Shown: in pieces, positions 22,199 through 55,427 of the stretch
Layout: each line of letters opens with the position of its first letter
How positions within the stretch are numbered: position 1 is the stretch's first letter
Source of the DNA: Escherichia phage AV116
DNA: 64,000 nucleotides
Sequence record: OR352946.1
Strand: one strand, 5' to 3'
Notes under the pieces: generated by a model
What the model saw: the letters and a program-made list of their open reading frames with translations, nothing else
Told to the model about the DNA's origin: nothing
Databases searched by the model: none
Program-made: the position numbers and the translations under genes

Positions 22199-22396
22199 AT
22201 GTTTAAACTTCCATCGTTAATCAACGCTATTAAAGGCAATAAAAAGAAAACTGCTATCGCTGCAATAGTTGTAGGTGGCATTATTTCATGGAACTTCGGG
22301 ATTGCACCATTGTTAGTTGCCAATGGTATTATAGTTCCTTCTGTTCCATTGGATACTGTAGTTGATTTGGCCTTTGCTATTATAGGGCTTGTTTAA
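22199..22396 (+). CDS. small membrane protein (plus strand)
   Basis: 65 aa; strong RBS ctaaggagatattATG; hydrophobic; convergent with gene 61, stop codons overlap. Confidence 0.4.
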   Translation: MFKLPSLINAIKGNKKKTAIAAIVVGGIISWNFGIAPLLVANGIIVPSVPLDTVVDLAFAIIGLV

Positions 22397-23415
22397 ATCT
22401 TCGAATAACGAGATAATCTCATTTTAGCATGCAACCCACTTGAAATATTCTGTTTCATATATTCTAAAATTTCTTGTGGTGTTGCATTTTCTTTCATTAC
22501 CATATCATTCACATCCTTTGAACTCCATGGAGCTCGGTCCCAGAACATGACACGTTCGCCTGCATCAACTAATCGCTTCATGCGAGCTATAGTATCCGGA
22601 TGCCTAGGTTCATTATCCATTACCCATACCCGACGTTCTTTAAATGGTACCACATCTAAATCTATCGAGCCGCCTGTAATAGCGATTGCATTGGGTATGA
22701 ATAAACTATCAATAGGGCCTTCCATTACCCAGACGTCCCCTTCCTTAACACGTTCAACACCATAAATTTTTGTTGCAGACTCAAACGCTTTAATAGTGAT
22801 ATATTTCTGAGGAGCATCTTTACGAAGTGCACGTCCTTGGAATGACTCGGCCTTCCCATCTTTATTAAAAATAGGAATAACTAAACGTGGTTCGGGAATC
22901 TCTTTCTTATACGTACCAGGTTGAATCTTGTTGACCAATTTGGGCCATTCTAATGTGAACCATAATCTGTTCCATGATTCTTTAGGAATACACCGAGACT
23001 TAACATATTTCACAATAGGATGCTCTTCAGGCAACTTGTCTAGACGAGAACAAGACGGCAAAGAATTTATAGTCTTTTTCTCCGGTTCTGGTTTATGTTC
23101 AGGAACCTTTTCAATCTTTGGTTCCATTCTAGCTTTTTCTTTACGAACTTCCATTAGATATTCGCGATAAAGCTCTTCATCATACTCTTTTAAGTATCCG
23201 GAAATTGTATTATGGTATTGACAGTTATAGCAATGTACATTACCAGGAGTACCGCCATAATACCAACCGCGAGCTTTCATTGCATCTGTCTGAGAGTCGC
23301 CACAAACTGGACATCGAAATGTTAATTTAAATGTGCTTGAATTATTGATTTGTCTAAAACGAGGTAGGTGAGAAAACGCACGATAAGCAAATTCATTATC
23401 TATCCATTCAGCCAT
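22393..23415 (-). CDS. 61: DNA primase (gp61)
   Basis: 340 aa; zinc ribbon CPVCGD...CYNC plus Toprim region; T4 gp61-like. Confidence 0.85.
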   Translation of the reverse strand: MAEWIDNEFAYRAFSHLPRFRQINNSSTFKLTFRCPVCGDSQTDAMKARGWYYGGTPGNVHCYNCQYHNTISGYLKEYDEELYREYLMEVRKEKARMEPKIEKVPEHKPEPEKKTINSLPSCSRLDKLPEEHPIVKYVKSRCIPKESWNRLWFTLEWPKLVNKIQPGTYKKEIPEPRLVIPIFNKDGKAESFQGRALRKDAPQKYITIKAFESATKIYGVERVKEGDVWVMEGPIDSLFIPNAIAITGGSIDLDVVPFKERRVWVMDNEPRHPDTIARMKRLVDAGERVMFWDRAPWSSKDVNDMVMKENATPQEILEYMKQNISSGLHAKMRLSRYSKI

Positions 23416-23454
23416 AGTATTCTCCAGAGGCCTTAAATTAATAAGGCCATCTTA

Positions 23455-23949
23455 TCACAACTTATTAATATTTACTTTAATTCGCTTTCTTTTCTTGGAA
23501 GGAATTTGTTCTGGACCTTTATTTACGACTGCACCTGTAGTAGTTCCTGATGCAATAGCTTGAGGGCTGCCACCTGAATCACCAGCAACCATATCCTCAA
23601 ATAAAGGGAGTTCTTTAAATATTTCTTTCTGTTGTTCTTCAGTAATGTTATAGCGTGAAGCTACAGCACTCCAAGCAGACATCATTGAGGCCATTCCATT
23701 AAGACCCGGAACAGTGCTCATCATTCGCTTCATTGAACGAACTGAAGCATGAAAAGGTGTATAAGCCGCTTTCTCTTCAGGAGTAGAAGGACGTTTAAGA
23801 ACACTTCCACGTTCATCGATGATTTTGGCTTCGTATGCTTTCCATTCGGTAAAAGGTTTTTGCATTAGTCGAATAAACTTATATGCATAAACAGAATCTA
23901 TTGCAGTGTTAATAATACCCATAGGTACCTCCTGAGTATATTTAATCAA
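23455..23949 (-). CDS. hypothetical protein (61.1 position)
   Basis: 164-aa ORF. Confidence 0.5.
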   Translation of the reverse strand: MIKYTQEVPMGIINTAIDSVYAYKFIRLMQKPFTEWKAYEAKIIDERGSVLKRPSTPEEKAAYTPFHASVRSMKRMMSTVPGLNGMASMMSAWSAVASRYNITEEQQKEIFKELPLFEDMVAGDSGGSPQAIASGTTTGAVVNKGPEQIPSKKRKRIKVNINKL

Positions 23950-24139
23950 TTACAAAGATTGCTTTGTCACCATTTATATCTGTGACTTCATATGTAGTGC
24001 CTTCATACTGTGGAATATTCCAAATTACACCGTCATTAGCTTTTACGCTAATATGGCATTGGTGTTTTGAAACAACTTCATAATCTTCAAAACTTGTAAA
24101 AACACTAATTTTAGAACCAGTGCAAATTGCAGTAGTCAT
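23942..24139 (-). CDS. hypothetical protein (61.2 position)
   Basis: 65-aa ORF. Confidence 0.4.
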   Translation of the reverse strand: MTTAICTGSKISVFTSFEDYEVVSKHQCHISVKANDGVIWNIPQYEGTTYEVTDINGDKAIFVID

Positions 24140-24140
24140 T

Positions 24141-24800
24141 TTAACCTCGATTCATAAATGCATTAAATATTTGGTCATCAACAGAAATTTCTAATTCGAC
24201 TTCAATTGCTTCAGCCTTTTCTTCAGGTGGTAATTCGTATCCACACACTACAATTTTTTCATCGATATCAAAATATACAGAAGCAATACGATTAATGTTA
24301 TTTTCAGTTAAGTCTAAATCAACATCAACATCTTTTTGATCTACACTTAAAGGATAACTAATACGGGTTATTTTATTATCTTTAACAAAGAGTCCGCCAA
24401 CGTACTCTGTACTACGTTTGAAGTTTACACGTTTCCGAATTGAAAGATATGATACATCTTTACCGTGAGCTCGGCTCATAGGACATAATGAATAGCTAGA
24501 ATAAGAGATGTCAAATCCTACACCTTCAATATGAGCCAACGTGTCATGATTAAACCAATTATAATCATATGCCAAATCCATTATATTGTAATATGTGAAA
24601 GGCACAGGATTAACATCATATGTTGTACCTTTAAAATCTGCCCAGGCAACGATTTCGTTATCTTTAACAATTACAAAAATTACACCAATATGGTATCCGT
24701 TATTATTTTCATTCGGCGTTATATTATAACATTGTGCATTAGGAAATTTACCATATTTAAATGGCGCATTTTTGTGCATATAATAAATCATATTATTCAC
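24141..24800 (-). CDS. hypothetical Asn/Tyr-rich protein
   Basis: 219-aa ORF in markedly AT-rich DNA. Confidence 0.45.
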   Translation of the reverse strand: MNNMIYYMHKNAPFKYGKFPNAQCYNITPNENNNGYHIGVIFVIVKDNEIVAWADFKGTTYDVNPVPFTYYNIMDLAYDYNWFNHDTLAHIEGVGFDISYSSYSLCPMSRAHGKDVSYLSIRKRVNFKRSTEYVGGLFVKDNKITRISYPLSVDQKDVDVDLDLTENNINRIASVYFDIDEKIVVCGYELPPEEKAEAIEVELEISVDDQIFNAFMNRG

Positions 24801-25086
24801 CTGTGATTTCGGTTACGATATCTTTGTTATCGAAATTAGGGTCACAATACAAAACATAGTTGTACTGCATGATACCGCCAGACTTAAGTTGTTCAACAAC
24901 TTTATTAACCATATTAGGACGGTCTCGTTTAGTGATGTTCATGATATCAGAGAAGATTTGTTGTTCAACATCTTCTTGATTTGCAGTCATTGACCACTCA
25001 CAGAGGTCTTTATCATAACCTGCCGTAACTGGAGCCGGTGCACATGATACTGCAAGTAAGATTGCTGCCAATGATAACTTTTTCAT
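24793..25086 (-). CDS. sp: secreted/lipoprotein, Spackle-like (putative)
   Basis: 97 aa; signal peptide with LAVSC lipobox-like cleavage site; size and position as T4 sp (61.3). Confidence 0.45.
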   Translation of the reverse strand: MKKLSLAAILLAVSCAPAPVTAGYDKDLCEWSMTANQEDVEQQIFSDIMNITKRDRPNMVNKVVEQLKSGGIMQYNYVLYCDPNFDNKDIVTEITGE

Positions 25087-25116
25087 TTTAACTCCTTAGT
25101 TGATTTGATAGGACTA

Positions 25117-25145
25117 CTATACTATAGTCCATCTATAATGTAAAC
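25117..25145 (-). promoter_or_regulatory. early promoter
   Basis: Plus ttgataggactactatactatagtcc...gtaaac. Confidence 0.4.
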
Positions 25146-25149
25146 AAGT

Positions 25150-25398
25150 TTATTCTTTTTCGCGAATAATAATTACTTGTTGAGGCTGCTGAGCAGATTT
25201 CTTTTCGGCAACGATAGACCAAATTAAAGTTCCAATCCAACCAATCATCGTCCAGTTAAAGAGTAAAGATACAAAGAAGATTGCTGTTGTGCTTTTTGTG
25301 CCACGAATAAGTGCTATTACCCAAGGCAACATGTAAATGATGATTGAACCAATACCTGCGATTAAAACTGCTACTGAACTAGCTACGAATAATTCCAT
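25150..25398 (-). CDS. two-TM membrane protein, superinfection-immunity (Imm)-like
   Basis: 82 aa; LPWVIALIRGTKSTTAIFFVSLLFNWTMIGWIGTLIWS resembles Imm-family signature. Confidence 0.4.
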   Translation of the reverse strand: MELFVASSVAVLIAGIGSIIIYMLPWVIALIRGTKSTTAIFFVSLLFNWTMIGWIGTLIWSIVAEKKSAQQPQQVIIIREKE

Positions 25399-25425
25399 GT
25401 TAATTTCCTCTTGATTTGTTATGTT

Positions 25426-25456
25426 TATAGTATCTTGTTTTAACTTTGGTGTAAAC
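25426..25456 (-). promoter_or_regulatory. early promoter
   Basis: Plus gtttatagtatcttgttttaactttggtgtaaac. Confidence 0.35.
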
Positions 25457-25459
25457 CAA

Positions 25460-25828
25460 TTAATTAAATTTGTTTAAACGTTCAATACACTGGACGTAGT
25501 TATTCGCGATTTGTTTCTGGGTAGGCTCTTTACCAGTTGTTTCAACATAGCGAATGAATGCGATTTCAGTAGCCTGTAAACAATGCTCTTTAACACGTTG
25601 TTCTTTTGACATAGCTACAGTATCAGAATCACGATAACGTTGAGCATGAGCATCAGCTTGAATCATTCGATTACCTACAGTAACCGGGTCTTCCACTTCA
25701 ACTTTAGGTTGGTCGTACTGTTTAACATTCGGATTGTAAATCAGTTGGCCGACGTTATTAGGGATAAAGCCATGAGCACCACATCCGGTTAATCCAAATA
25801 CCATTGCTAAAGCGATTAATTTTTTCAT
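25460..25828 (-). CDS. putative lipoprotein
   Basis: 122 aa; MKKLIALAMVFGLTGC signal peptide with lipobox. Confidence 0.5.
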   Translation of the reverse strand: MKKLIALAMVFGLTGCGAHGFIPNNVGQLIYNPNVKQYDQPKVEVEDPVTVGNRMIQADAHAQRYRDSDTVAMSKEQRVKEHCLQATEIAFIRYVETTGKEPTQKQIANNYVQCIERLNKFN

Positions 25829-25899
25829 TTCAATTTCCTCTGTAGTTGATAGAAAGATAGTAACACAGTATGTGGGGCTTGTAAACAGTTATTTTAAAA

Positions 25900-26088
25900 T
25901 TATCGAAAATCTGCTTCGAAAACTTTCTCATCATTAACAAATGCTTTAACTAATGCGTTGTTCACTTCAGCAAGTTGTACCGCAACCCACTCGATTTCTT
26001 CACGATCACCTGATAACATGATATCTTTAGTGAACATCTCGCCGCTTTTAAACCAACCGATAAAAGTAACTTTAGTTAATTTGCTCAT
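25900..26088 (-). CDS. dmd: Dmd-like antitoxin (inhibitor of RnlA/LsoA-type toxins), putative
   Basis: 62 aa from ATG 26088 (ATGA coupling); ...VTFIGWFKSGEMFTKDIML...LAEVNNALVKAFVNDEKVFEADF resembles T4 Dmd as recalled. Confidence 0.4.
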   Translation of the reverse strand: MSKLTKVTFIGWFKSGEMFTKDIMLSGDREEIEWVAVQLAEVNNALVKAFVNDEKVFEADFR

Positions 26089-26402
26089 ATTTCCTCGCAA
26101 AATGCCCATTCAGCGTGATAAACTGTAGCACCTTTAGTGTCATTCATTTGAACTACATCTACCGGAGAAATTACTCGATAGAGACGTGGTTCACCTCCAT
26201 AAGAGCGTGCTGCTCGTCCTGCATAAATCTTTGCTAAACCGATATCTTCAGTAAAGAATACACGATCCAAGTTTTTCTTACGTCCAGTTTCAGACAGAAC
26301 TCCTGTTTCTTCAGGAGGACAAAGCATGTTTTCGATGTTAGCTGAACTACTTGAACCGTGATAAAAAATCTTAAATTCTGCTTTACAATCGATGGTTTTC
26401 AT
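26085..26402 (-). CDS. hypothetical protein
   Basis: 105-aa ORF. Confidence 0.45.
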   Translation of the reverse strand: MKTIDCKAEFKIFYHGSSSSANIENMLCPPEETGVLSETGRKKNLDRVFFTEDIGLAKIYAGRAARSYGGEPRLYRVISPVDVVQMNDTKGATVYHAEWAFCEEI

Positions 26403-26427
26403 TTTGTTCTCCAGTAGTTGATAGGTC

Positions 26428-26457
26428 TATAATAACACAACTACTGGAGAAGTAAAC
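26428..26457 (-). promoter_or_regulatory. early promoter (GTTTAC-N18-TATAAT)
   Basis: Plus ttgataggtctataataacacaactactggagaagtaaac. Confidence 0.45.
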
Positions 26458-26832
26458 TTAAAAACGTAATTTAGATATATCTGCGTTGATTTCGTTTTGG
26501 TTTGCGTCGTATGCAATTAAACGAACCGCTTTAGATGGGTCATTCAATGCATAGAAATGATGGAACATTGCTCGAACGATATCACCATTTACGAGTTCTA
26601 CCTGGATAGGAGAACCTTTTTCGAGTTGGAAATGTTCATAAGCTTTGATGGTTCGTAGATAATCAAGTTTTTGATTTCCGGCTCCAACTATTTGTACGAT
26701 ACGTTTGCCCATGTTTTCCATACGAGATACAATAGTTTTAGGAGCAAGAATAACGTAGGTTGCCAGCGGAGAAACTACTTCAACAGTTGTGTTTTCGGTG
26801 ATTGCAGTAAAAATTGCTTGAGACATATTCAT
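26458..26832 (-). CDS. hypothetical protein
   Basis: 124-aa ORF. Confidence 0.5.
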   Translation of the reverse strand: MNMSQAIFTAITENTTVEVVSPLATYVILAPKTIVSRMENMGKRIVQIVGAGNQKLDYLRTIKAYEHFQLEKGSPIQVELVNGDIVRAMFHHFYALNDPSKAVRLIAYDANQNEINADISKLRF

Positions 26833-26898
26833 AATGTTTTCCTCTTGGTTGGTGTAAGTACATCATATCATGCCTAGAGGAAGATGTAAACCCCGAAA

Positions 26899-26914
26899 GG
26901 AGACCGAAGTCTCC
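26899..26914. other. GC-rich UUCG-loop hairpin downstream of gene 41 (T-run on plus side)
   Basis: ggagacCGAAgtctcc followed by ttttt on plus strand. Confidence 0.4.
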
Positions 26915-26920
26915 TTTTTA

Positions 26921-28363
26921 TTAAAATTTTAACTCGTTGGCTAAGCTATCTAGGTCAGCACGTGTTGCTTTGGCTTTACCTACGCGTTCCGTACGATTCA
27001 CCTCTGCCTGACGCATCTGAGCACCTGCGTTTTCATTTACTGTGTTAGGTGTGTTCATGCCTTCTTGCTCAATCTCAACCCATTTCTGATTGCCTTTACG
27101 TACACCCATCAGGAATTTATTCCACTTATTCTTATCACCATATCGTGATTTGATTTGTTTGATAAGTTGTTGTTCAGCTTGTGCAAGTTCTTCGGTTTCA
27201 ATTACGGCCAACATGAAATCTGCCGTTGCTGGTAAACCTGCTGATTCTGCAATATCACTCATGTTCATGTCTGAAGCATCCCATGCTGCACGTCCTACTT
27301 GAGCTGCAGTCCATAGAACTGTTTCAGATTCTACTGCTAATGCACGAAGTTCTTCTGCGATAGCTTTAACTAATGTGTAGCTATTTTCAGTGTAAACTCT
27401 GATACGACAAGACCCACAAATACCTAAGTAATCAACCATGATTACAGATGGCACAAAGTTCTTCTTGAGTTTCAATTCATTAAGCAATGCACGGAATGTA
27501 TTAGCATTAGCTCCGCCAGTAGGATACTGTTTAACTACTAAACGTCCTAATGTGGATTTTGAACGCCATTTTTCCATCTTGGCTTTATATTCAGCATAAG
27601 ATACGTTACCATCATCAATATCATCGAGCGATACGTCAAGCATGTTTGCATCTATACGCTTAGCACAAACTTCTTCAGCCATTTCCATAGAAATATAAAG
27701 AACATTATGACCTGTTTGAAGATAATCTGCAGCAAGTGAACAAAGGCCTAAAGATTTACCAACGTTAACACCGGCCATTAAAACATTCAGTGTACCGGTT
27801 TCAGCACCACCTTTAGTGATTTTATTCAAAATGTTTAATTTGAACGGGACCTTACGTGCTTTGTTCAGATAAGAAAGCCAGCGTGCTTCATAGTCTTCCA
27901 TCCAGTCATGTCCAACATAACTATCGAACGAAATTGAAAGTGCTTGACGCATAATATCAGGAATAGCTCCTACGTCAGGCATTTTCTTGTTACGTTGTTC
28001 TGGAGGTAGTTCAGCATTAGACTGAATCTCAATGATTTTGGACGTAGCATTATACATCGCTTTTTGCTGGACATATTTCTCAGTTTCTTTAACCAACCAT
28101 TCATGGTCTTCAGGAATATCAGCCAATTTTTCAATTAGGTCTGAAGTTCCTTTATATTCGGCTTCAGTTAAAGAACTGTTATCTAAAGCCACCTTTAATG
28201 CATTGATAGATGGCATTGCATTATATTCATTAACGTGGCTCTTTATAATTTTAAAGACGTTTTTTGCCGGTCCACGCTCAAAATACTCAGAATCCATATA
28301 AGGCCATACCTTAGAAAAATAAGCCTGGTCGTATACTAGATGAGACAAAATAATTTCTACCAC
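26921..28363 (-). CDS. 41: replicative DNA helicase (gp41, DnaB-like)
   Basis: 480 aa; Walker A LMAGVNVGKS; T4 gp41-like throughout. Confidence 0.9.
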   Translation of the reverse strand: MVEIILSHLVYDQAYFSKVWPYMDSEYFERGPAKNVFKIIKSHVNEYNAMPSINALKVALDNSSLTEAEYKGTSDLIEKLADIPEDHEWLVKETEKYVQQKAMYNATSKIIEIQSNAELPPEQRNKKMPDVGAIPDIMRQALSISFDSYVGHDWMEDYEARWLSYLNKARKVPFKLNILNKITKGGAETGTLNVLMAGVNVGKSLGLCSLAADYLQTGHNVLYISMEMAEEVCAKRIDANMLDVSLDDIDDGNVSYAEYKAKMEKWRSKSTLGRLVVKQYPTGGANANTFRALLNELKLKKNFVPSVIMVDYLGICGSCRIRVYTENSYTLVKAIAEELRALAVESETVLWTAAQVGRAAWDASDMNMSDIAESAGLPATADFMLAVIETEELAQAEQQLIKQIKSRYGDKNKWNKFLMGVRKGNQKWVEIEQEGMNTPNTVNENAGAQMRQAEVNRTERVGKAKATRADLDSLANELKF

Positions 28364-28372
28364 GATAACTCC

Positions 28373-28735
28373 TTAAAAGAATTTAAATTTTTTCTTGGTT
28401 CGTTCATTAAAAGCTTGTTGTACTTGCATTGTAACACATTTTTCAACATGTGGTGCAAGTTCTGCTTTTCTGTCCTGGTCAAGAACTGCAAAGTCCATTA
28501 CGATTTTACCATCAACCCAGTCTAGTTTTGTAATATAGACTATATGATGGGAACCGTCTTCAAGTGTAATCAGAATCTCTTGAATGACATTTTCCATTGC
28601 TGAACGGATAATTTTAAGAGATTCATTAAACACTCGTTCTTTGCGAATGTCCTCCCCTTCCGAAGAAGGGGATTCATCAACGATTTCTAGATTTAAATCA
28701 TCGAGATTATTCATCGAAATCTTCCATTTCGTCAA
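28373..28735 (-). CDS. 40: gp40-like protein (head vertex assembly chaperone position)
   Basis: 120-aa ORF between 41 and uvsX as in T4. Confidence 0.5.
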   Translation of the reverse strand: MTKWKISMNNLDDLNLEIVDESPSSEGEDIRKERVFNESLKIIRSAMENVIQEILITLEDGSHHIVYITKLDWVDGKIVMDFAVLDQDRKAELAPHVEKCVTMQVQQAFNERTKKKFKFF

Positions 28736-32422: not shown

Positions 32423-33592
32423 TCATTCCGGGTACCTCAAAGCGTCATCAGAGTTAGTTATATCAATAATAGATATAGAGTTTTCTGCTAACCCGTTTTT
32501 AGATAATTGACGTTTATAATATCTTTCACAATATGTACACGTCGTCCCGCAGATTTCATTAGCACAATCGAAATCTGGATGTCTGAACCACCTTTTTTCT
32601 AAAAAGCCATCTAACAAAGAGGTTTCAATATTTACTGTATGTGAAAACTCAGTTTCGTTTTCAAGAGTGAAAATGGTCTCTAAAGGCTTCCACAGTTCTA
32701 ACAAATTACCTTCAAACTTTTCAGAAGCGTATGCTTCAAGAACTTTCAAAATGTAGTCTGTGCTACCTGTACGTCCTGAAACTTTGAATTGAGTGATACC
32801 AATATCATTATAAAGTTTCAAATCTTGAGGACGAACAAAACGAGTTCTCAACCAGTTAAATGGGTCTGTATCACGAGCTTTAATACAGTGCTGCATAGGA
32901 TATCCGTTTAAGGATTTAGCATCATCAGCGGTAACATCAGTACTATGGAAAATATAGCAAGAGTCACGATAGCTACAATGTGTTGTATACCCTTTACCAG
33001 CATTAGAACAGAACTCATTTACAAGAACTTCAAATATTATATTGTTCTTATTGCAAAACTCTGCTGCACGCTTCAGGAAAGAAACTGAACGGTTCTTATG
33101 AATTCCGCAGCAGACCTTTTTGATATTATACTGGTCATGCAAGTATTTGATTTGAGTTACAGCATCGACATGTAGAATTGTTGAAACTTCAATCTCAATG
33201 TCTTTATTGACTTCACGAACAATTTCCATAACAACAGGGTTAGCGATAGTAATACGCCATACGCCTATTGACCAAAGATACTGAACATAATCCTGAATAG
33301 CTTTCTTCTTCCACTCAACTAGTTCTCTTTTTGAACCAGGATTTATCGTGTTGAGTGTATAGTTAAAGCAAATACCTAATTCGTTACAACGTTTAACGTA
33401 GTCTTCTAACATCTTTTTGTCAACGTCAGGAAGCCTAAAATCAGGTCTGGCTGCTACAAAAGCCATTTCTCTTGTAGAGCCATATACTTCGTTTATCAAG
33501 CTATTAGGATAGGTTTTATTGAGCTCTACGATTTTATCAAGAAGAGCTAAATCAAAATTCGTTCCGATTTTAAAAGTATTCATTTTTTGCAT
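32423..33592 (-). CDS. Cys-rich protein of unknown function (weak peptidase-U32/TIM-barrel-like pattern)
   Basis: 389 aa; NEFCSNAGKGYTTHCSYRDSC and C-terminal CANEICGTTCTYC clusters; part of sugar cassette. Confidence 0.4.
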   Translation of the reverse strand: MQKMNTFKIGTNFDLALLDKIVELNKTYPNSLINEVYGSTREMAFVAARPDFRLPDVDKKMLEDYVKRCNELGICFNYTLNTINPGSKRELVEWKKKAIQDYVQYLWSIGVWRITIANPVVMEIVREVNKDIEIEVSTILHVDAVTQIKYLHDQYNIKKVCCGIHKNRSVSFLKRAAEFCNKNNIIFEVLVNEFCSNAGKGYTTHCSYRDSCYIFHSTDVTADDAKSLNGYPMQHCIKARDTDPFNWLRTRFVRPQDLKLYNDIGITQFKVSGRTGSTDYILKVLEAYASEKFEGNLLELWKPLETIFTLENETEFSHTVNIETSLLDGFLEKRWFRHPDFDCANEICGTTCTYCERYYKRQLSKNGLAENSISIIDITNSDDALRYPE

Positions 33593-33638
33593 CTCGCGTT
33601 AATTGATGCGATGGTTTTTGCAGGTCTTACTTAAATTA

Positions 33639-34040
33639 TTATAGATTCGGTTTATACGATTTAAATGTTTCGAATTCGCCTTTATTCATAAGAGCTTTGA
33701 ATTCGTCAGGACGCATAGCTTTGTCGTCGATAATCCAATCATATACTGGTTTATGTGTTAGCAAATTATGGTACTTCAAGCCAATGTTTGCCAAGTTCTG
33801 AATCAGACTTGGGAGAATGTCAATTGCTATACGTCCAGGACCTACTGACTTCATACCGCGAGCAGTGTAAAGCGTTATGGTATGCCCTGCATCATACAGG
33901 GCATTAATGGCAGACACCATTTCGACGTCTGGTTTGAAGTTCACGTAATCACGATTGTTATTCCACTCTGTTATACAATCATCGACATCAAAACAAAGAT
34001 TAAGCATGTTTTCTACACGGTGCATTAGATTCGTTCCCAT
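33639..34040 (-). CDS. HAD-superfamily phosphatase (small)
   Basis: 133 aa; motif I FDVDDC, motif II TLYTARG, motif IV DWIIDDK. Confidence 0.55.
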   Translation of the reverse strand: MGTNLMHRVENMLNLCFDVDDCITEWNNNRDYVNFKPDVEMVSAINALYDAGHTITLYTARGMKSVGPGRIAIDILPSLIQNLANIGLKYHNLLTHKPVYDWIIDDKAMRPDEFKALMNKGEFETFKSYKPNL

Positions 34041-35710
34041 TGATGAGTGATATCGCCACCGATTGGACGATAGGAAACACCAGTTTCTTTATCAGTTAGT
34101 ACCCATTTACCAGGATTTTTTGTAATCAGAGTAGCCGTTACAGGTTCTGCTACGTCATAACTAATAGAGCCGTCCTGAAGTACACGGCCCATGTTACGTA
34201 ATTGCTTAGTCAGAAGTTCCATACCTTTATAATATGCGGCTACCGCTTTAAGTGGATTATTCTTGAAATAACCACCTAATGCAATCCAGATAATTGCCAC
34301 AGCCAAATGATGATATTCATTAAACGAACTCAGCTTTCCATATTTGTAAACTAATGGATTGATGTTAATAGTCACATTACAAGTTGTTTCATCAATAGTA
34401 AACTGTCCCCAGGTCGGATTAGCATTGAATTCATCATAACCTGAAACAGCATAAAGCACTTTAGCTTCATCATACAATTTTGGCCCGTAAATCTTGGTTT
34501 CACCAAAATATCCACGAGGGTCGATAAATTTGACTTCGCCGTTATCAGTAATCATAGTATTACTGAAGTTCGGGTCACCATGAATAACAGAGTACTGTCC
34601 CTGAGAACGGTTATGATAACGAATAAGGTGTTCTAAAGCTTGTTTCAGCATTGGCTTCAGACGTCCAATCTTAGTGTAGTTCACATGTGTGATTTTACCA
34701 AATGAATCAATCAATGGTTGAATGCTTTCACAACGATCAATAACTTTCGTATAGAATTCTTTAGTGAAATCACGACGAACAGTTTCAGGACTTACAAAAT
34801 AAGTGTCTGTGCTGAATTTCAGTGCATCTAAAATTGCATCAACAATTTGTGGACGAGCAAGACTTGATTTGGATTTAATATATTCAAATGCCGGCTTACC
34901 TTTAATGCGTTCCATTTCAAAGTTATTTTCATTAACAGAAACTAACTGAGGAACTGAATCTGATTTCACTTTCAAATACCACGAAATCTCATCTTTCTGA
35001 AGAGCTCGACCTTGTTCAGTTAATGCGAATTTAGTTACAGTTTCTTCACCAATTTCAACTGCATTAAAACTACGATTAAGTTCACGAACTTCATGAGCCT
35101 TTTCAAGTTTAGGCATATCACCAAGGTCGATGATATTCATAAGCTCTGATTTATTGAATGCGCCGCTGTAAAGGAATTCTACGAAATCACGTCCTTTGCA
35201 GTATTCATGAATTTCCTCATCGGTAGAACCCATGTAGAATTCCCAGTCTTTGAACTGATAAATTCCTACAACATTACCACCTGTTGAACCTACGTTAGTG
35301 ATATTTTCACCGTCGAAATTATACCGACATTCATCACCCTTAACATAGATTGCGTTAACATTCCAAGACCATGAACCAAAATCAGGAATAATATCACACC
35401 AGTTAACAATTACATTATGGCCATCTAAATCTTTGTGTAATTTAGCAAGAGCATAAGCAGAACCATACGCTTCATCAACTGTACGAATAGTCACATTGAA
35501 CCCTTCTTGCTCACAATAAGCTCGAACAGTTTCAGCAAATTTTGAATGAACTACTACGATAATTTCATCTGCGCCAAGGTCAGAATAAATTGTATACAAA
35601 TTGCTCAGAATAGTGTCTTGTTTATAGTTAACAAGCACCTTAGGAATATGATGCGTTATTGGATACAAACGAGTTGCCAGTCCAGCACCAAGAATAACAG
35701 CTTTTTTCAT
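34025..35710 (-). CDS. bifunctional sugar-1-phosphate nucleotidyltransferase / APH-type kinase
   Basis: 561 aa; N-terminal MKKAVILGAGLATRLYPIT (G-x-G-x-x-T-R-L NTase motif); C-terminal HGDPNFSN Brenner motif of aminoglycoside/choline kinase family. Confidence 0.65.
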   Translation of the reverse strand: MKKAVILGAGLATRLYPITHHIPKVLVNYKQDTILSNLYTIYSDLGADEIIVVVHSKFAETVRAYCEQEGFNVTIRTVDEAYGSAYALAKLHKDLDGHNVIVNWCDIIPDFGSWSWNVNAIYVKGDECRYNFDGENITNVGSTGGNVVGIYQFKDWEFYMGSTDEEIHEYCKGRDFVEFLYSGAFNKSELMNIIDLGDMPKLEKAHEVRELNRSFNAVEIGEETVTKFALTEQGRALQKDEISWYLKVKSDSVPQLVSVNENNFEMERIKGKPAFEYIKSKSSLARPQIVDAILDALKFSTDTYFVSPETVRRDFTKEFYTKVIDRCESIQPLIDSFGKITHVNYTKIGRLKPMLKQALEHLIRYHNRSQGQYSVIHGDPNFSNTMITDNGEVKFIDPRGYFGETKIYGPKLYDEAKVLYAVSGYDEFNANPTWGQFTIDETTCNVTININPLVYKYGKLSSFNEYHHLAVAIIWIALGGYFKNNPLKAVAAYYKGMELLTKQLRNMGRVLQDGSISYDVAEPVTATLITKNPGKWVLTDKETGVSYRPIGGDITHQWERI

Positions 35711-35745
35711 GTTGAAGTCCTCATTGGTAAGTAGGAGTATTGTAC

Positions 35746-35895
35746 ACTATTCTAGTTAAAGCATTCATACTTTGCTTGTAGTCCAATCATAATCCATCCA
35801 ATCACAAGTGTTGGAATCATTACCGGAGCCGTTAAGCTCCAGTAGATAGTCATGACAAGCATCAATAGTAAAAGTCCTATTGTTATTGCTTTCAT
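35746..35895 (-). CDS. small membrane protein (49 aa), not in ORF track
   Basis: ATG 35895 overlaps upstream stop (ATGA); MKAITIGLLLLMLVMTIYWSLTAPVMIPTLVIGWIMIG... Confidence 0.35.
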
Positions 35896-36527
35896 TGTTC
35901 GCCTCGTAACATGGCACCTAGTGCACCGCCTGGATGGAACTTAAGGAAATCATTAGAGGTAAATCCACGTTCAGACGAAAGGTTGATAGCAAACGTATCG
36001 ATAAGCGCTAACAACAATGTAGTGGACATAGTCGGAGCTAAAGAGTTCTCGTCAACTTCTACCGCGATACCGGTACAGAACGTATAATCAAAAAGAGCTT
36101 CGTATTCTTGTGGAATGTCAGGGTTACAATGTAACAGAATCTGTTTAACCTGAGGACGAATCATACGAAGATGTTTAGCAACACCTATCATTTCTTCAGT
36201 CTTACCAGAACGACTGATGTGAACTAATACATCATTAGGTGCAATAAATCCTGCGTCACCATGAGAATAATGCCCAGTGTTCAAGTACATACTTGGGATA
36301 CCGAGTGAAGCAAAAGTCTCGGAAGCTTTAGTTGCGATATTAGCGTTCTTACCAACACCTGTAATAATTACCCGGCTTTCATAATTACTAAGTCCAGGGC
36401 GTCGAAGAGTTTCTAGAATAGCGTTATAACGAGCAGGGTTTTGACTAATTACTTTAGCCATAGTGGCAAGAGATGAAGCTTGTTTTACGATTGCGTCAAT
36501 AGCGATAGTGATTGGTGTAGTTTTCAT
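35892..36527 (-). CDS. SIS-domain sugar-phosphate isomerase, KdsD/GutQ-type (D-arabinose-5-phosphate isomerase-like), no CBS domains
   Basis: 211 aa; GVGKNANIATKASETFASLGIPS, HGDAG, ISRSGKT, LAPTMSTT, FHPGGALG align with API SIS domain. Confidence 0.7.
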   Translation of the reverse strand: MKTTPITIAIDAIVKQASSLATMAKVISQNPARYNAILETLRRPGLSNYESRVIITGVGKNANIATKASETFASLGIPSMYLNTGHYSHGDAGFIAPNDVLVHISRSGKTEEMIGVAKHLRMIRPQVKQILLHCNPDIPQEYEALFDYTFCTGIAVEVDENSLAPTMSTTLLLALIDTFAINLSSERGFTSNDFLKFHPGGALGAMLRGEQ

Positions 36528-55229: not shown

Positions 55230-55427
55230 TTAGTAAACGTTATAAAAGTTACGATGAGAACGTTTAGCTTTGCGAAGCTGACGTTTAGTTGGTCGAACCG
55301 TAAATGGTCGTCCGGAGAAAAAATTCGGATCGGTTTTAATAAGCAAATACCAATCATGCTTGCCATTTTTTAATAAACGGTACAATAATTTAACTTGCAT
55401 AATAATCTCTTCCCATTTCCAAATCAA
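55230..55427 (-). CDS. hypothetical basic protein
   Basis: 65-aa ORF. Confidence 0.35.
   Translation of the reverse strand: MIWKWEEIIMQVKLLYRLLKNGKHDWYLLIKTDPNFFSGRPFTVRPTKRQLRKAKRSHRNFYNVY

Follow-up and report, generated by a model that had tools for sequence, protein, structure and literature searches.

Between its helicase gene (41) and its primase gene (61), Escherichia phage AV116 has a hyperplastic interval that houses four small genes, sp, imm, imm.1 and dmd. It raises the question whether these genes form a single defence and counter-defence module targeting the cell envelope, as a preliminary description had proposed, or are separate genes that lie next to each other. We analysed a stretch of 64,000 nucleotides from sequence record OR352946.1 (hereafter the window), which comes from an RB69-like T-even phage and is ~99% identical to Escherichia phage AV109. 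All four are real open reading frames (ORFs) on the minus strand, lying where the preliminary description had placed them, and each is preceded by a GAGG/AAGGAG Shine-Dalgarno sequence. They are independently useful early accessory genes placed side by side, in a wider interval that is pieced together from independent accessory genes, including adfA, a mini-ADP-ribosyltransferase (mini-ART) gene and uncharacterised ORFs. It is highly probable that the four are orthologues of known T-even genes, expressed independently of each other, with activities taken from T4 and RB69 and a role for Imm.1 taken from synteny.

Profile searches returned the family similarity that the preliminary description had expected, and not the lack of it that had been named as refuting. 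In Pfam, Sp matched the Spackle family PF25676 (E = 1.1e-42, 145 bits against a gathering cut-off of 27, profile positions 1-96 of 96), Imm matched PF14373 (E = 1.5e-15, 57.2 bits, cut-off 27.9), Dmd matched PF17587 (E = 2.7e-19, 69.7 bits, cut-off 27) and Imm.1 matched PF17578/DUF5481 (E = 3.6e-9, 37.4 bits, cut-off 27). The corresponding PHROG families were phrog_1586 for Sp, phrog_1039 for Imm (E = 1e-30), phrog_2102 for Dmd (E = 3.5e-32) and phrog_1754 for Imm.1 (E = 8.8e-29). NCBIfam gave no match for any of the small proteins, and Rfam gave no RNA family across the whole window. The orthology, the export and lipidation signals, the conservation of experimentally tested residues and the promoter layout are direct observations, while the biochemical activities of Sp, Imm and Dmd are proposed by analogy with the work on T4 and RB69. 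Their target specificity (gp5, gp29, RnlA/LsoA alleles) may differ from that in T4, because the proteins diverge by 34-46% from the T4 proteins used for biochemistry.

The cluster is ordinary and already known, since the RB69 reference genome already uses the names imm, imm.1, sp and dmd, and the genes are annotated in related phages. In RB69 (NC_004928) dmd, imm.1, imm and sp correspond to RB69p039, p037, p036 and p035, with the same order, strand and spacing as in the window, and ORF040c/041c lie upstream in both. A 6.1-kb query running from primase to helicase (window positions 22300-28400) found ~150 GenBank phages at least 95% identical over at least 80%. Homology-based annotation thus adds little beyond what exists for RB69 and these ~150 phages, and the additions made here are modest: a loss of tifA, an invariant pairing of imm.1 with imm, and a predicted ADP-ribosyltransferase (ART) fold in an ORF coupled to dmd.

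The sp gene (24793..25086, minus strand) encodes a protein of 97 amino acids that is predicted to inhibit, in the periplasm, the gp5 tail lysozyme of a superinfecting phage. It is 66% identical to T4 Sp in an ungapped alignment of two 97-residue proteins, 34% of the residues being different, and matches the Spackle structures PDB 6X6O/6XC1 at E = 1.4e-39. T4 Spackle (sp/61.3; PDB 6X6O, 6XC1, 7CN6) is reported to be soluble in the periplasm, with maturation at Gly23 and a Cys29-Cys81 disulfide (PMC7677548). The window protein has a hydrophobic N-terminus at residues 4-24, which constitutes a signal sequence, and cysteines at 15, 29 and 81; it thus shares the signal peptide, the Gly23 site and the Cys29-Cys81 pair with the T4 protein. 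The preliminary description had seen here a protein of Spackle size with a signal peptide and a lipobox. The signal sequence and the relationship to Spackle hold, whereas the lipobox is only a loose one (...AVSC15, at Cys15), and we rejected the reading of Sp as a lipoprotein in view of the maturation at Gly23 reported for T4 (PMC7677548). By analogy, the signal peptide would direct export of the window Sp, followed by maturation at Gly23 and formation of a Cys29-Cys81 disulfide, and the protein would act as a gp5 lysozyme inhibitor: it would bind the tail-spike lysozyme domain of gp5 of a second incoming phage, so that the tail tube could not cross the peptidoglycan. The phage's own gp5 is encoded outside the window.

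As in T4, sp lies upstream of 61.2, here the gene for anti-DarT factor A (adfA, 24141..24800, minus strand; PF23813, E = 3.7e-119; 65% identical to T4 61.2). The adfA start overlaps the sp stop, so the two genes are presumably co-transcribed.

The imm gene (25150..25398, minus strand) encodes a predicted inner-membrane superinfection immunity protein of 82 amino acids. The two transmembrane segments and the Imm-like signature ascribed to it earlier were borne out, with two long hydrophobic stretches (1-34 and 40-59), no cysteine, and 65% identity to T4 Imm (P08986) from end to end, the C-terminal IIIREKE tail included. T4 Imm, which binds the tape-measure protein gp29, has the same length and hydrophobic profile. 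Mutational data indicate that R33 and W50 of T4 Imm are needed for exclusion (bioRxiv 10.64898/2026.03.06.709160), and both are kept in the window protein, as R32 and W49. We propose by analogy that Imm resides in the inner membrane and would bind gp29 of the incoming phage, thereby acting as a tape-measure-binding blocker of DNA entry. Together, Sp and Imm should exclude related T-even phages, which is of use for predicting phage-host relations.

PF14373 is a broad family with members in prophages and siphophages as well, and T4 imm sits at a different position, between genes 43 and 42 rather than between dmd and sp. The 82-residue protein might hence be a paralogous membrane protein of the Imm_superinfect family with another job, the true imm being elsewhere in the genome. 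This is extremely unlikely: tblastn found exactly one imm place per phage record, the identity to T4 Imm is on a par with that of Sp, AdfA and UvsX, and in the window the interval between genes 43 and 42 is occupied by SIS, nucleotidyltransferase and U32-type genes, without an imm. A further imm at any other place in the window was rejected.

The dmd gene (25900..26088, minus strand) encodes 62 amino acids, and its product is predicted to inhibit the HEPN RNase toxins RnlA/LsoA by antitoxin mimicry. The resemblance to Dmd noticed earlier proved to be close: the protein is identical at 60 of 62 residues to PDB 5I8J (E = 1e-36), also matches PDB 5HY3 chain B ('Antitoxin Dmd'), these being T4 Dmd/RB69 Dmd entries, and is 54% identical to T4 Dmd. 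The homology with the T4 protein and with 5I8J begins at the methionine of the 62-residue form, which is preceded by the Shine-Dalgarno sequence GAGGAAAT; a 69-residue ORF ending at 26109 is a mechanical upstream extension and was rejected. Dmd has no export signal and would stay in the cytoplasm, where, by analogy with its T4 and RB69 counterparts, it would inhibit RnlA/LsoA by binding these RNase toxins in place of the labile host antitoxins RnlB/LsoB. Resistance to RnlAB/LsoAB should be the outcome, with AdfA providing resistance to DarTG.

The ATG of dmd overlaps the stop of a 105-codon ORF upstream (26085..26402, minus strand) in the form ATGA, and dmd is predicted from this arrangement to be translationally coupled to that ORF. 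In T4, in contrast, dmd is served by an early promoter of its own and precedes tifA, the product of 61.4 being TifA (PMC9391042), whereas in the window dmd follows an ORF with a predicted ART fold and tifA is missing. The tifA gene lies directly downstream of dmd in T2, T4, T6 and RB69, and the sibling phage moha also has it. RB69 carries this 213-bp gene 61.4/tifA between dmd and imm.1; aligned pairwise with RB69, the window has a clean gap of ~206 bp, with nearly identical flanks at the junction (25890..25902, minus strand). The near-identity to RB69 extends, promoter included, from the end of ORF040c across dmd as far as the imm.1 start. The only DUF7279 (TifA) ORF in the window is at 55230-55400, and the alignment indicates that tifA has been lost from this locus. 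This loss may make the phage more sensitive than RB69 to ToxIN.

The 41-61 interval of T4 has already been termed an anti-TA island, with the order dmd-tifA-adfA (Srikant et al. 2022, PMC9391042). The window resembles it in having dmd and adfA between genes 41 and 61, and differs from it by lacking tifA and by containing imm.1-imm (as in RB69), the mini-ART and further uncharacterised ORFs.

The expression of the four genes was approached by a search for the T4-early-like promoter motif GTTTAC-N16-18-TAnnnT. It matched the coding strand 23 times and the other strand once, with ~1.1 expected per strand, corresponding to a ~20-fold enrichment on the coding strand. Of these 23 sites, five lie between 26891 and 25116, all on the minus strand. 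Early-promoter-like sites were found for sp (25116..25145, GTTTAC-17/18-TATAGT), for imm (25427..25456, GTTTAC..TACTAT) and for imm.1 (25857..25886, GTTTAC..TACTAT, TG-extended and conserved in RB69). A fourth (26429..26457) precedes the 105-codon ORF and, by inference, would also serve dmd, since no minus-strand motif occurs between it and the dmd start. The fifth (26891-26862) belongs to an ORF of 124 codons (26458..26832, minus strand; phrog_10668, E = 3e-86) that is homologous to RB69ORF041c. An early promoter of its own, attributed in the preliminary description to each of the four genes, is thus present for sp, imm and imm.1 and absent for dmd, the nearest upstream site being that at 26457-26429. 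The repeats of the region consist only of shared promoter/leader sequence and one inverted repeat that spans the promoter of the 105-codon ORF.

Contiguity of the four genes, their early type and common strand, together with the neighbouring positions, in RB69-type phages, of the three genes for envelope proteins (imm.1, imm and sp), would agree with a single co-functional unit targeting the envelope, inherited and acting as a whole. This strong form of the proposal in the preliminary description did not hold, and we consider it very unlikely. Dmd is a predicted cytoplasmic anti-RNase without export signal, three separate promoters are present, and the middle of the cluster may or may not contain tifA. 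Moreover, in T4 imm.1-imm lies ~6 kb away, between genes 43 and 42, whereas sp and dmd remain in the 41-61 interval, so that the set of four is separable; in Gaprivervirus, Dhakavirus and Moonvirus imm also lies beside gene 43. Comparative gene order therefore largely refutes the single module and agrees with separate accessory genes.

The gene that the preliminary description had reported as a second lipoprotein, imm.1 (25460..25828, minus strand), lies 61 bp upstream of imm and encodes 122 amino acids. Its prediction as a lipoprotein was confirmed by a signal peptide with a canonical lipobox (L-T-G-C16), and comparison of the sequences identifies the protein as the orthologue of T4/RB69 Imm.1; the gene at the same position in RB69 is annotated imm.1. 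Identity to T4 Imm.1 is 32% (E = 1e-18), and the two proteins have in common the lipobox, a YNPNVK motif, the C-terminal cysteine pair (Cys83/Cys114 in the window) and a place immediately upstream of imm. T4 Imm.1 possesses in addition a first cysteine pair (NCSSK...KCY), which the window type lacks, and the lipobox cysteine is missing in some members of the family. Imm.1 would be exported and lipidated at Cys16 and probably sorted to the outer membrane, because there is no Asp at position +2.

For Imm.1, HMMER run exhaustively over 1.84 billion representatives detected no more than six proteins, all of phage type, and a word-indexed protein search gave only 3-6 clusters. The AF2 model is poor (pLDDT 59), with confidence confined to a C-terminal helical hairpin; a Foldseek comparison of this model with the PDB gave nothing below E = 3.9, and phmmer and profile searches of the PDB gave no matches. 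A literature search on DUF5481, PF17578 and imm.1 found no relevant papers, and imm.1 is unmentioned in the 2026 preprint on Imm cited above.

Loci gathered by Imm homology, that is, sampled from the Imm side, showed an Imm.1-type lipoprotein gene directly beside imm in all 23 T4-like loci, in any gene order or genome position. In this IMG/VR sample the neighbour was HMM-detectable as Imm.1 in 21 of the 23 and was a lipoprotein of the same architecture in the other two. None of the 57 Imm loci that were not T4-like had an adjacent lipobox ORF. Side by side on one strand, imm.1 and imm recur in T4, RB69, Gaprivervirus, Dhakavirus, Moonvirus and a Klebsiella phage, with varying order and position. 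Since the adjacency occurs in all 23 T4-like loci and in none of the 57 others, it suggests a possible partnership of imm.1 and imm.

Judged from synteny, Imm.1 could assist Imm-type exclusion during the periplasmic leg of injection. It might even be a third, unrecognised component of T-even superinfection exclusion, an outer-membrane/periplasmic lipoprotein that works together with Imm. In that case the tail tip or tape-measure protein of the incoming phage might be captured or mis-routed by Imm.1 in the periplasm, or alternatively Imm.1 might position or stabilise Imm at injection sites. Such a role as a third component would explain why imm.1 has stayed beside imm through inversion and relocation in all T4-like lineages sampled despite evolving much faster than Imm; we regard it as rather unlikely. 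Imm alone, supplied from a plasmid, is sufficient for immunity according to the older T4 literature, which counts against a role of Imm.1. The assays on Imm alone in the 2026 preprint (bioRxiv 10.64898/2026.03.06.709160) point in the same direction, and linkage in a virus genome can reflect shared history instead of shared function.

Imm.1 might be unconnected with superinfection immunity, an independent periplasmic or outer-membrane effector hitch-hiking beside imm, for example in receptor masking (like T5 Llp), in modulating lysis inhibition or in countering an envelope-based host defence. We take this to be possible, if short of probable. Imm.1 evolves much faster than most compared neighbours (32% identity to T4, versus 62-86% for these and 54% for Dmd), a pattern typical of proteins whose partner, for instance a receptor, is variable and has to be followed. 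In the window its gene has a separate promoter, and some of its homologues are not lipidated. Such independence is harder to reconcile with the finding that, across all 23 sampled T4-like loci, imm.1 has stayed next to imm through an inversion of gene order and a move between two genome sites. It also accords poorly with T4, where imm lies only ~8-11 bp behind imm.1, a spacing that suggests co-translation, whereas imm has its own promoter in the window. The imm.1-imm pairing and the highly conserved mini-ART coupled to dmd are both testable leads in a well-studied model system.

The product of the 105-codon ORF upstream of dmd had no sequence match in Pfam, NCBIfam or the PDB, and its ADP-ribosyltransferase fold is predicted by fold comparison. 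H15-G16, F49, Y60 and E103, some of which may correspond to the H-Y-E/D triad that catalyses NAD-dependent transfer in ARTs, are invariant in 32 homologues. One terminator-like match lies inside this ORF and is probably due to chance.

Over the 6.1 kb around sp, imm, imm.1 and dmd, identity is 99.2% to Escherichia phage AV109 and 98.5% to Shigella phage JK45; some 150 phages in GenBank match this query over 80% or more of its length at 95-99% identity. The identities to T4 (86% for gp41, 74% for gp61, 68% for UvsX and 62% for gp43) point to a T-even relative at an RB69-like distance, and the local gene order is that of the RB69 reference genome. The taxonomy line of JK45 (locus L001, NC_054940) reads Tequatrovirus; its locus order and sequence are of the RB69 (Mosigvirus) type, and the gp43 of the window shares only 62% identity with T4 gp43.

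Listed from 5' to 3' on their common minus strand, the genes of the 41-61 region are the 41 helicase (26921-28363), a 124-aa ORF of unknown function (26458-26832), a 105-aa ORF (26085-26402), dmd (25900-26088), imm.1 (25460-25828), imm (25150-25398), sp (24793-25086), adfA/61.2 (24141-24800), a 65-aa ORF (23942-24139), a 164-aa ORF (23455-23949) and the 61 primase (22393-23415). The cluster lies between primase and helicase, as the preliminary description had it, and each of its four genes is preceded by a good Shine-Dalgarno sequence. Its end had been set at 26109, which corresponds to a mechanically longer ORF; dmd starts at 26088, giving 62 aa. T4 gp61.1 (54 aa) aligns to the C-terminus of the 164-aa ORF (23476-23619, 69% identity) and not to the 65-aa ORF; the 164-aa protein appears to be an extended or fused version, and RB69 has two separate ORFs in this region.

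Protein features were assessed by simple hydropathy and pattern analysis, and the tentative identities proposed earlier were borne out by profile searches. The 97-aa product of sp, described as a signal-peptide/lipobox protein of Spackle size, has a signal-like N-terminus and a loose lipobox (AVSC15). It matches PF25676 (E = 1.1e-42), phrog_1586 and the PDB structures 6X6O, 6XC0, 6XC1 and 7CN6, and is 66% identical to T4 Sp, ungapped over all 97 residues. Mature T4 Sp comprises Gly23-Glu97, contains a Cys29-Cys81 disulfide and inhibits the gp5 lysozyme stoichiometrically (PMC7677548); Gly23, Cys29 and Cys81 are all kept here. The 82-aa protein, read as a two-TM protein with an Imm-like signature, indeed contains two long hydrophobic stretches, matches PF14373 (E = 1.5e-15) and phrog_1039 (E = 1e-30), and is 65% identical to T4 Imm over a stretch that takes in the C-terminal VIIIREKE. 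According to a 2026 preprint (bioRxiv 10.64898/2026.03.06.709160), T4 Imm binds gp29, the tape-measure protein, and its exclusion is weakened by R33A and W50A; the equivalents of both residues are conserved. In siphophage- or prophage-like IMG/VR contigs (loci L029, 2941-5829, and L060, 2896-5939) a tape-measure gene lies directly downstream of an Imm_superinfect-family gene, which fits the report of Imm targeting this protein. The suspected Dmd matches PF17587 (E = 2.7e-19) and phrog_2102 (E = 3.5e-32); it is 54% identical to T4 Dmd and identical at 60 of 62 residues to PDB 5I8J, which the RB69 DNA alignment identifies as the RB69 protein.

The second lipoprotein, of 122 aa, has a signal-like N-terminus and the expected lipobox in canonical form (LTGC16). 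Its match to PF17578/DUF5481 (37 bits, cut-off 27) and phrog_1754 (8.8e-29), its 32% identity to T4 Imm.1 (E = 1e-18) and the annotation of imm.1 at the same position in RB69 identify it, by sequence, as Imm.1. The observation is therefore real and the gene identifications were correct; since all four have well-studied T4/RB69 orthologues and carry the matching annotations in public genomes, the finding was already known. What novelty remains lies in the pairing of Imm.1 with Imm, the loss of tifA and the small ADP-ribosyltransferase-fold ORF upstream of dmd, all three being leads and not results.

A phrog_1754 lipoprotein gene lies directly beside imm, on the same strand, in every phage compared. 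The pair is found between genes 43 and 42 in T4 (43 > imm.1 > imm > 42) and in the order dmd > (tifA) > imm.1 > imm > sp in RB69 and the window; imm.1 is upstream of imm in Moonvirus Merlin and Klebsiella phage Roth76, and downstream in Gaprivervirus P896 and Dhakavirus AnYang. Among 80 Imm-encoding loci sampled from IMG/VR (23 T4-like, 57 non-T4-like), an Imm.1 gene is detected by HMM in 21, at a distance of 8-150 bp from imm (upstream in 12, downstream in 9). In the other two T4-like loci a 148-aa LTGC lipoprotein overlaps the imm start, and a lipobox ORF beside imm is absent from all 57 non-T4-like loci. From synteny only, we infer that Imm.1 may be a functional partner of Imm. Imm.1 is diverging far more rapidly than Imm (identity to T4, 32% versus 65%) and retains a C-terminal Cys pair. 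E. coli lipoproteins without Asp at +2 are sorted to the outer membrane; this residue is absent from all lipidated Imm.1 members examined, which predicts outer-membrane localisation. Two metagenomic homologues, P0002 and P0005, have a signal peptide and no lipid-accepting Cys (...LAGFSAHA...), so that not every family member is lipid-anchored. The family is very small and confined to phages (6 representatives in 1.84 billion proteins); PDB sequence and fold searches found no structural relatives, and a literature search on Imm.1/DUF5481 found no publications.

In T4, 61.4 occupies the slot between dmd and sp. The 43-42 interval of the window (32423-36527, minus strand) contains SIS-domain, nucleotidyltransferase and peptidase-U32-like genes, as in JK45 and RB69; these presumably resemble the RB69 arabinosyl-hmC modification genes, and the interval is probably an arabinosyl-hmC DNA modification cluster. 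Identity between the gene 42 homologue and its T4 counterpart is only 25%. The 82-aa gene might have been an Imm paralogue, but tblastn found a single imm and a single imm.1 in each phage record, with agreeing identity classes (Imm, 153 records at least 95% identical and 502 at 60-80%; Imm.1, 154 at least 95% identical and 502 below 60%), so that it is the imm of this lineage.

On the minus (coding) strand of the whole window there are 23 copies of the T4-early-type motif GTTTAC-N16-18-TAnnnT, with one on the plus strand and about 1.1 per strand expected under a first-order Markov model; the motif maps the early promoters cleanly. Several copies have an extended TAGGACTATG...TATAGT spacer in common. 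Five lie within 1.8 kb (26891 to 25116), before the 124-aa ORF, the 105-aa ORF, imm.1, imm and sp. The statement that every gene of the cluster has an early promoter of its own thus holds for sp, imm and imm.1 and fails for dmd, before which the motif scan found no copy. As the dmd ATG also overlaps the stop of the 105-aa ORF (ATGA), dmd is most probably the second cistron of a unit shared with this ORF. A 19-nt inverted repeat (26402-26456, 89% complementarity, spacer of 17 nt) extends over both the -35 region and the ribosome-binding site of the 105-aa ORF, whose promoter/leader is 76% similar to that of imm.1 (25835-25867).

For this 105-aa ORF (phrog_2110), Pfam and PDB sequence searches gave no match; its protein has a confident ADP-ribosyltransferase fold, with Tpt1, Arr and AcrF11 as best matches. 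It is present at 60-90% identity in 609 records of T4-like phages of Escherichia, Klebsiella, Acinetobacter and Aeromonas, a few of which label it a putative ADP-ribosyl transferase; T4 lacks it at the corresponding locus. H15-G16, F49, Y60 and E103 are invariant among 32 homologues. The protein is a candidate counter-defence enzyme or RNA-modifying factor.

An anti-TA island in this interval was proposed by Srikant et al.; in T4, 61.4 is TifA, which inhibits the toxin ToxN, and 61.2 is the anti-DarT factor AdfA (PMC9391042). The 219-aa AdfA of the window (24141-24800, minus strand; PF23813, E = 3.7e-119) lies directly downstream of sp and overlaps its stop, so that the counter-defence content of the interval reaches beyond the four genes. 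These had been viewed as together forming an envelope-targeted defence and counter-defence module, a reading we do not retain: that imm.1-imm takes separable positions in different genera, that promoters are individual and that tifA is polymorphic in presence all point to independent accessory genes accumulated here, and not to one machine. In the alignment with RB69, a clean gap of about 206 bp removes 61.4/tifA directly after the dmd stop (window ~25890-25902; RB69 locus L089, 5751-5963, between dmd and imm.1), with nearly identical flanks and an intact imm.1 promoter. RB69-type TifA (at least 95% identity) was found in 69 phage records, versus about 154 with window-type imm.1/imm, which indicates that the tifA-less form is common and the gene polymorphic in presence. 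A distant DUF7279 (TifA-family) ORF of 56 aa (55230-55400, minus strand) lies a short way upstream of gene 49 (endonuclease VII) and is preceded by an early-promoter motif of its own (55479-55450); as T4 TifA also matches DUF7279 in Pfam, this ORF is a possible TifA paralogue.
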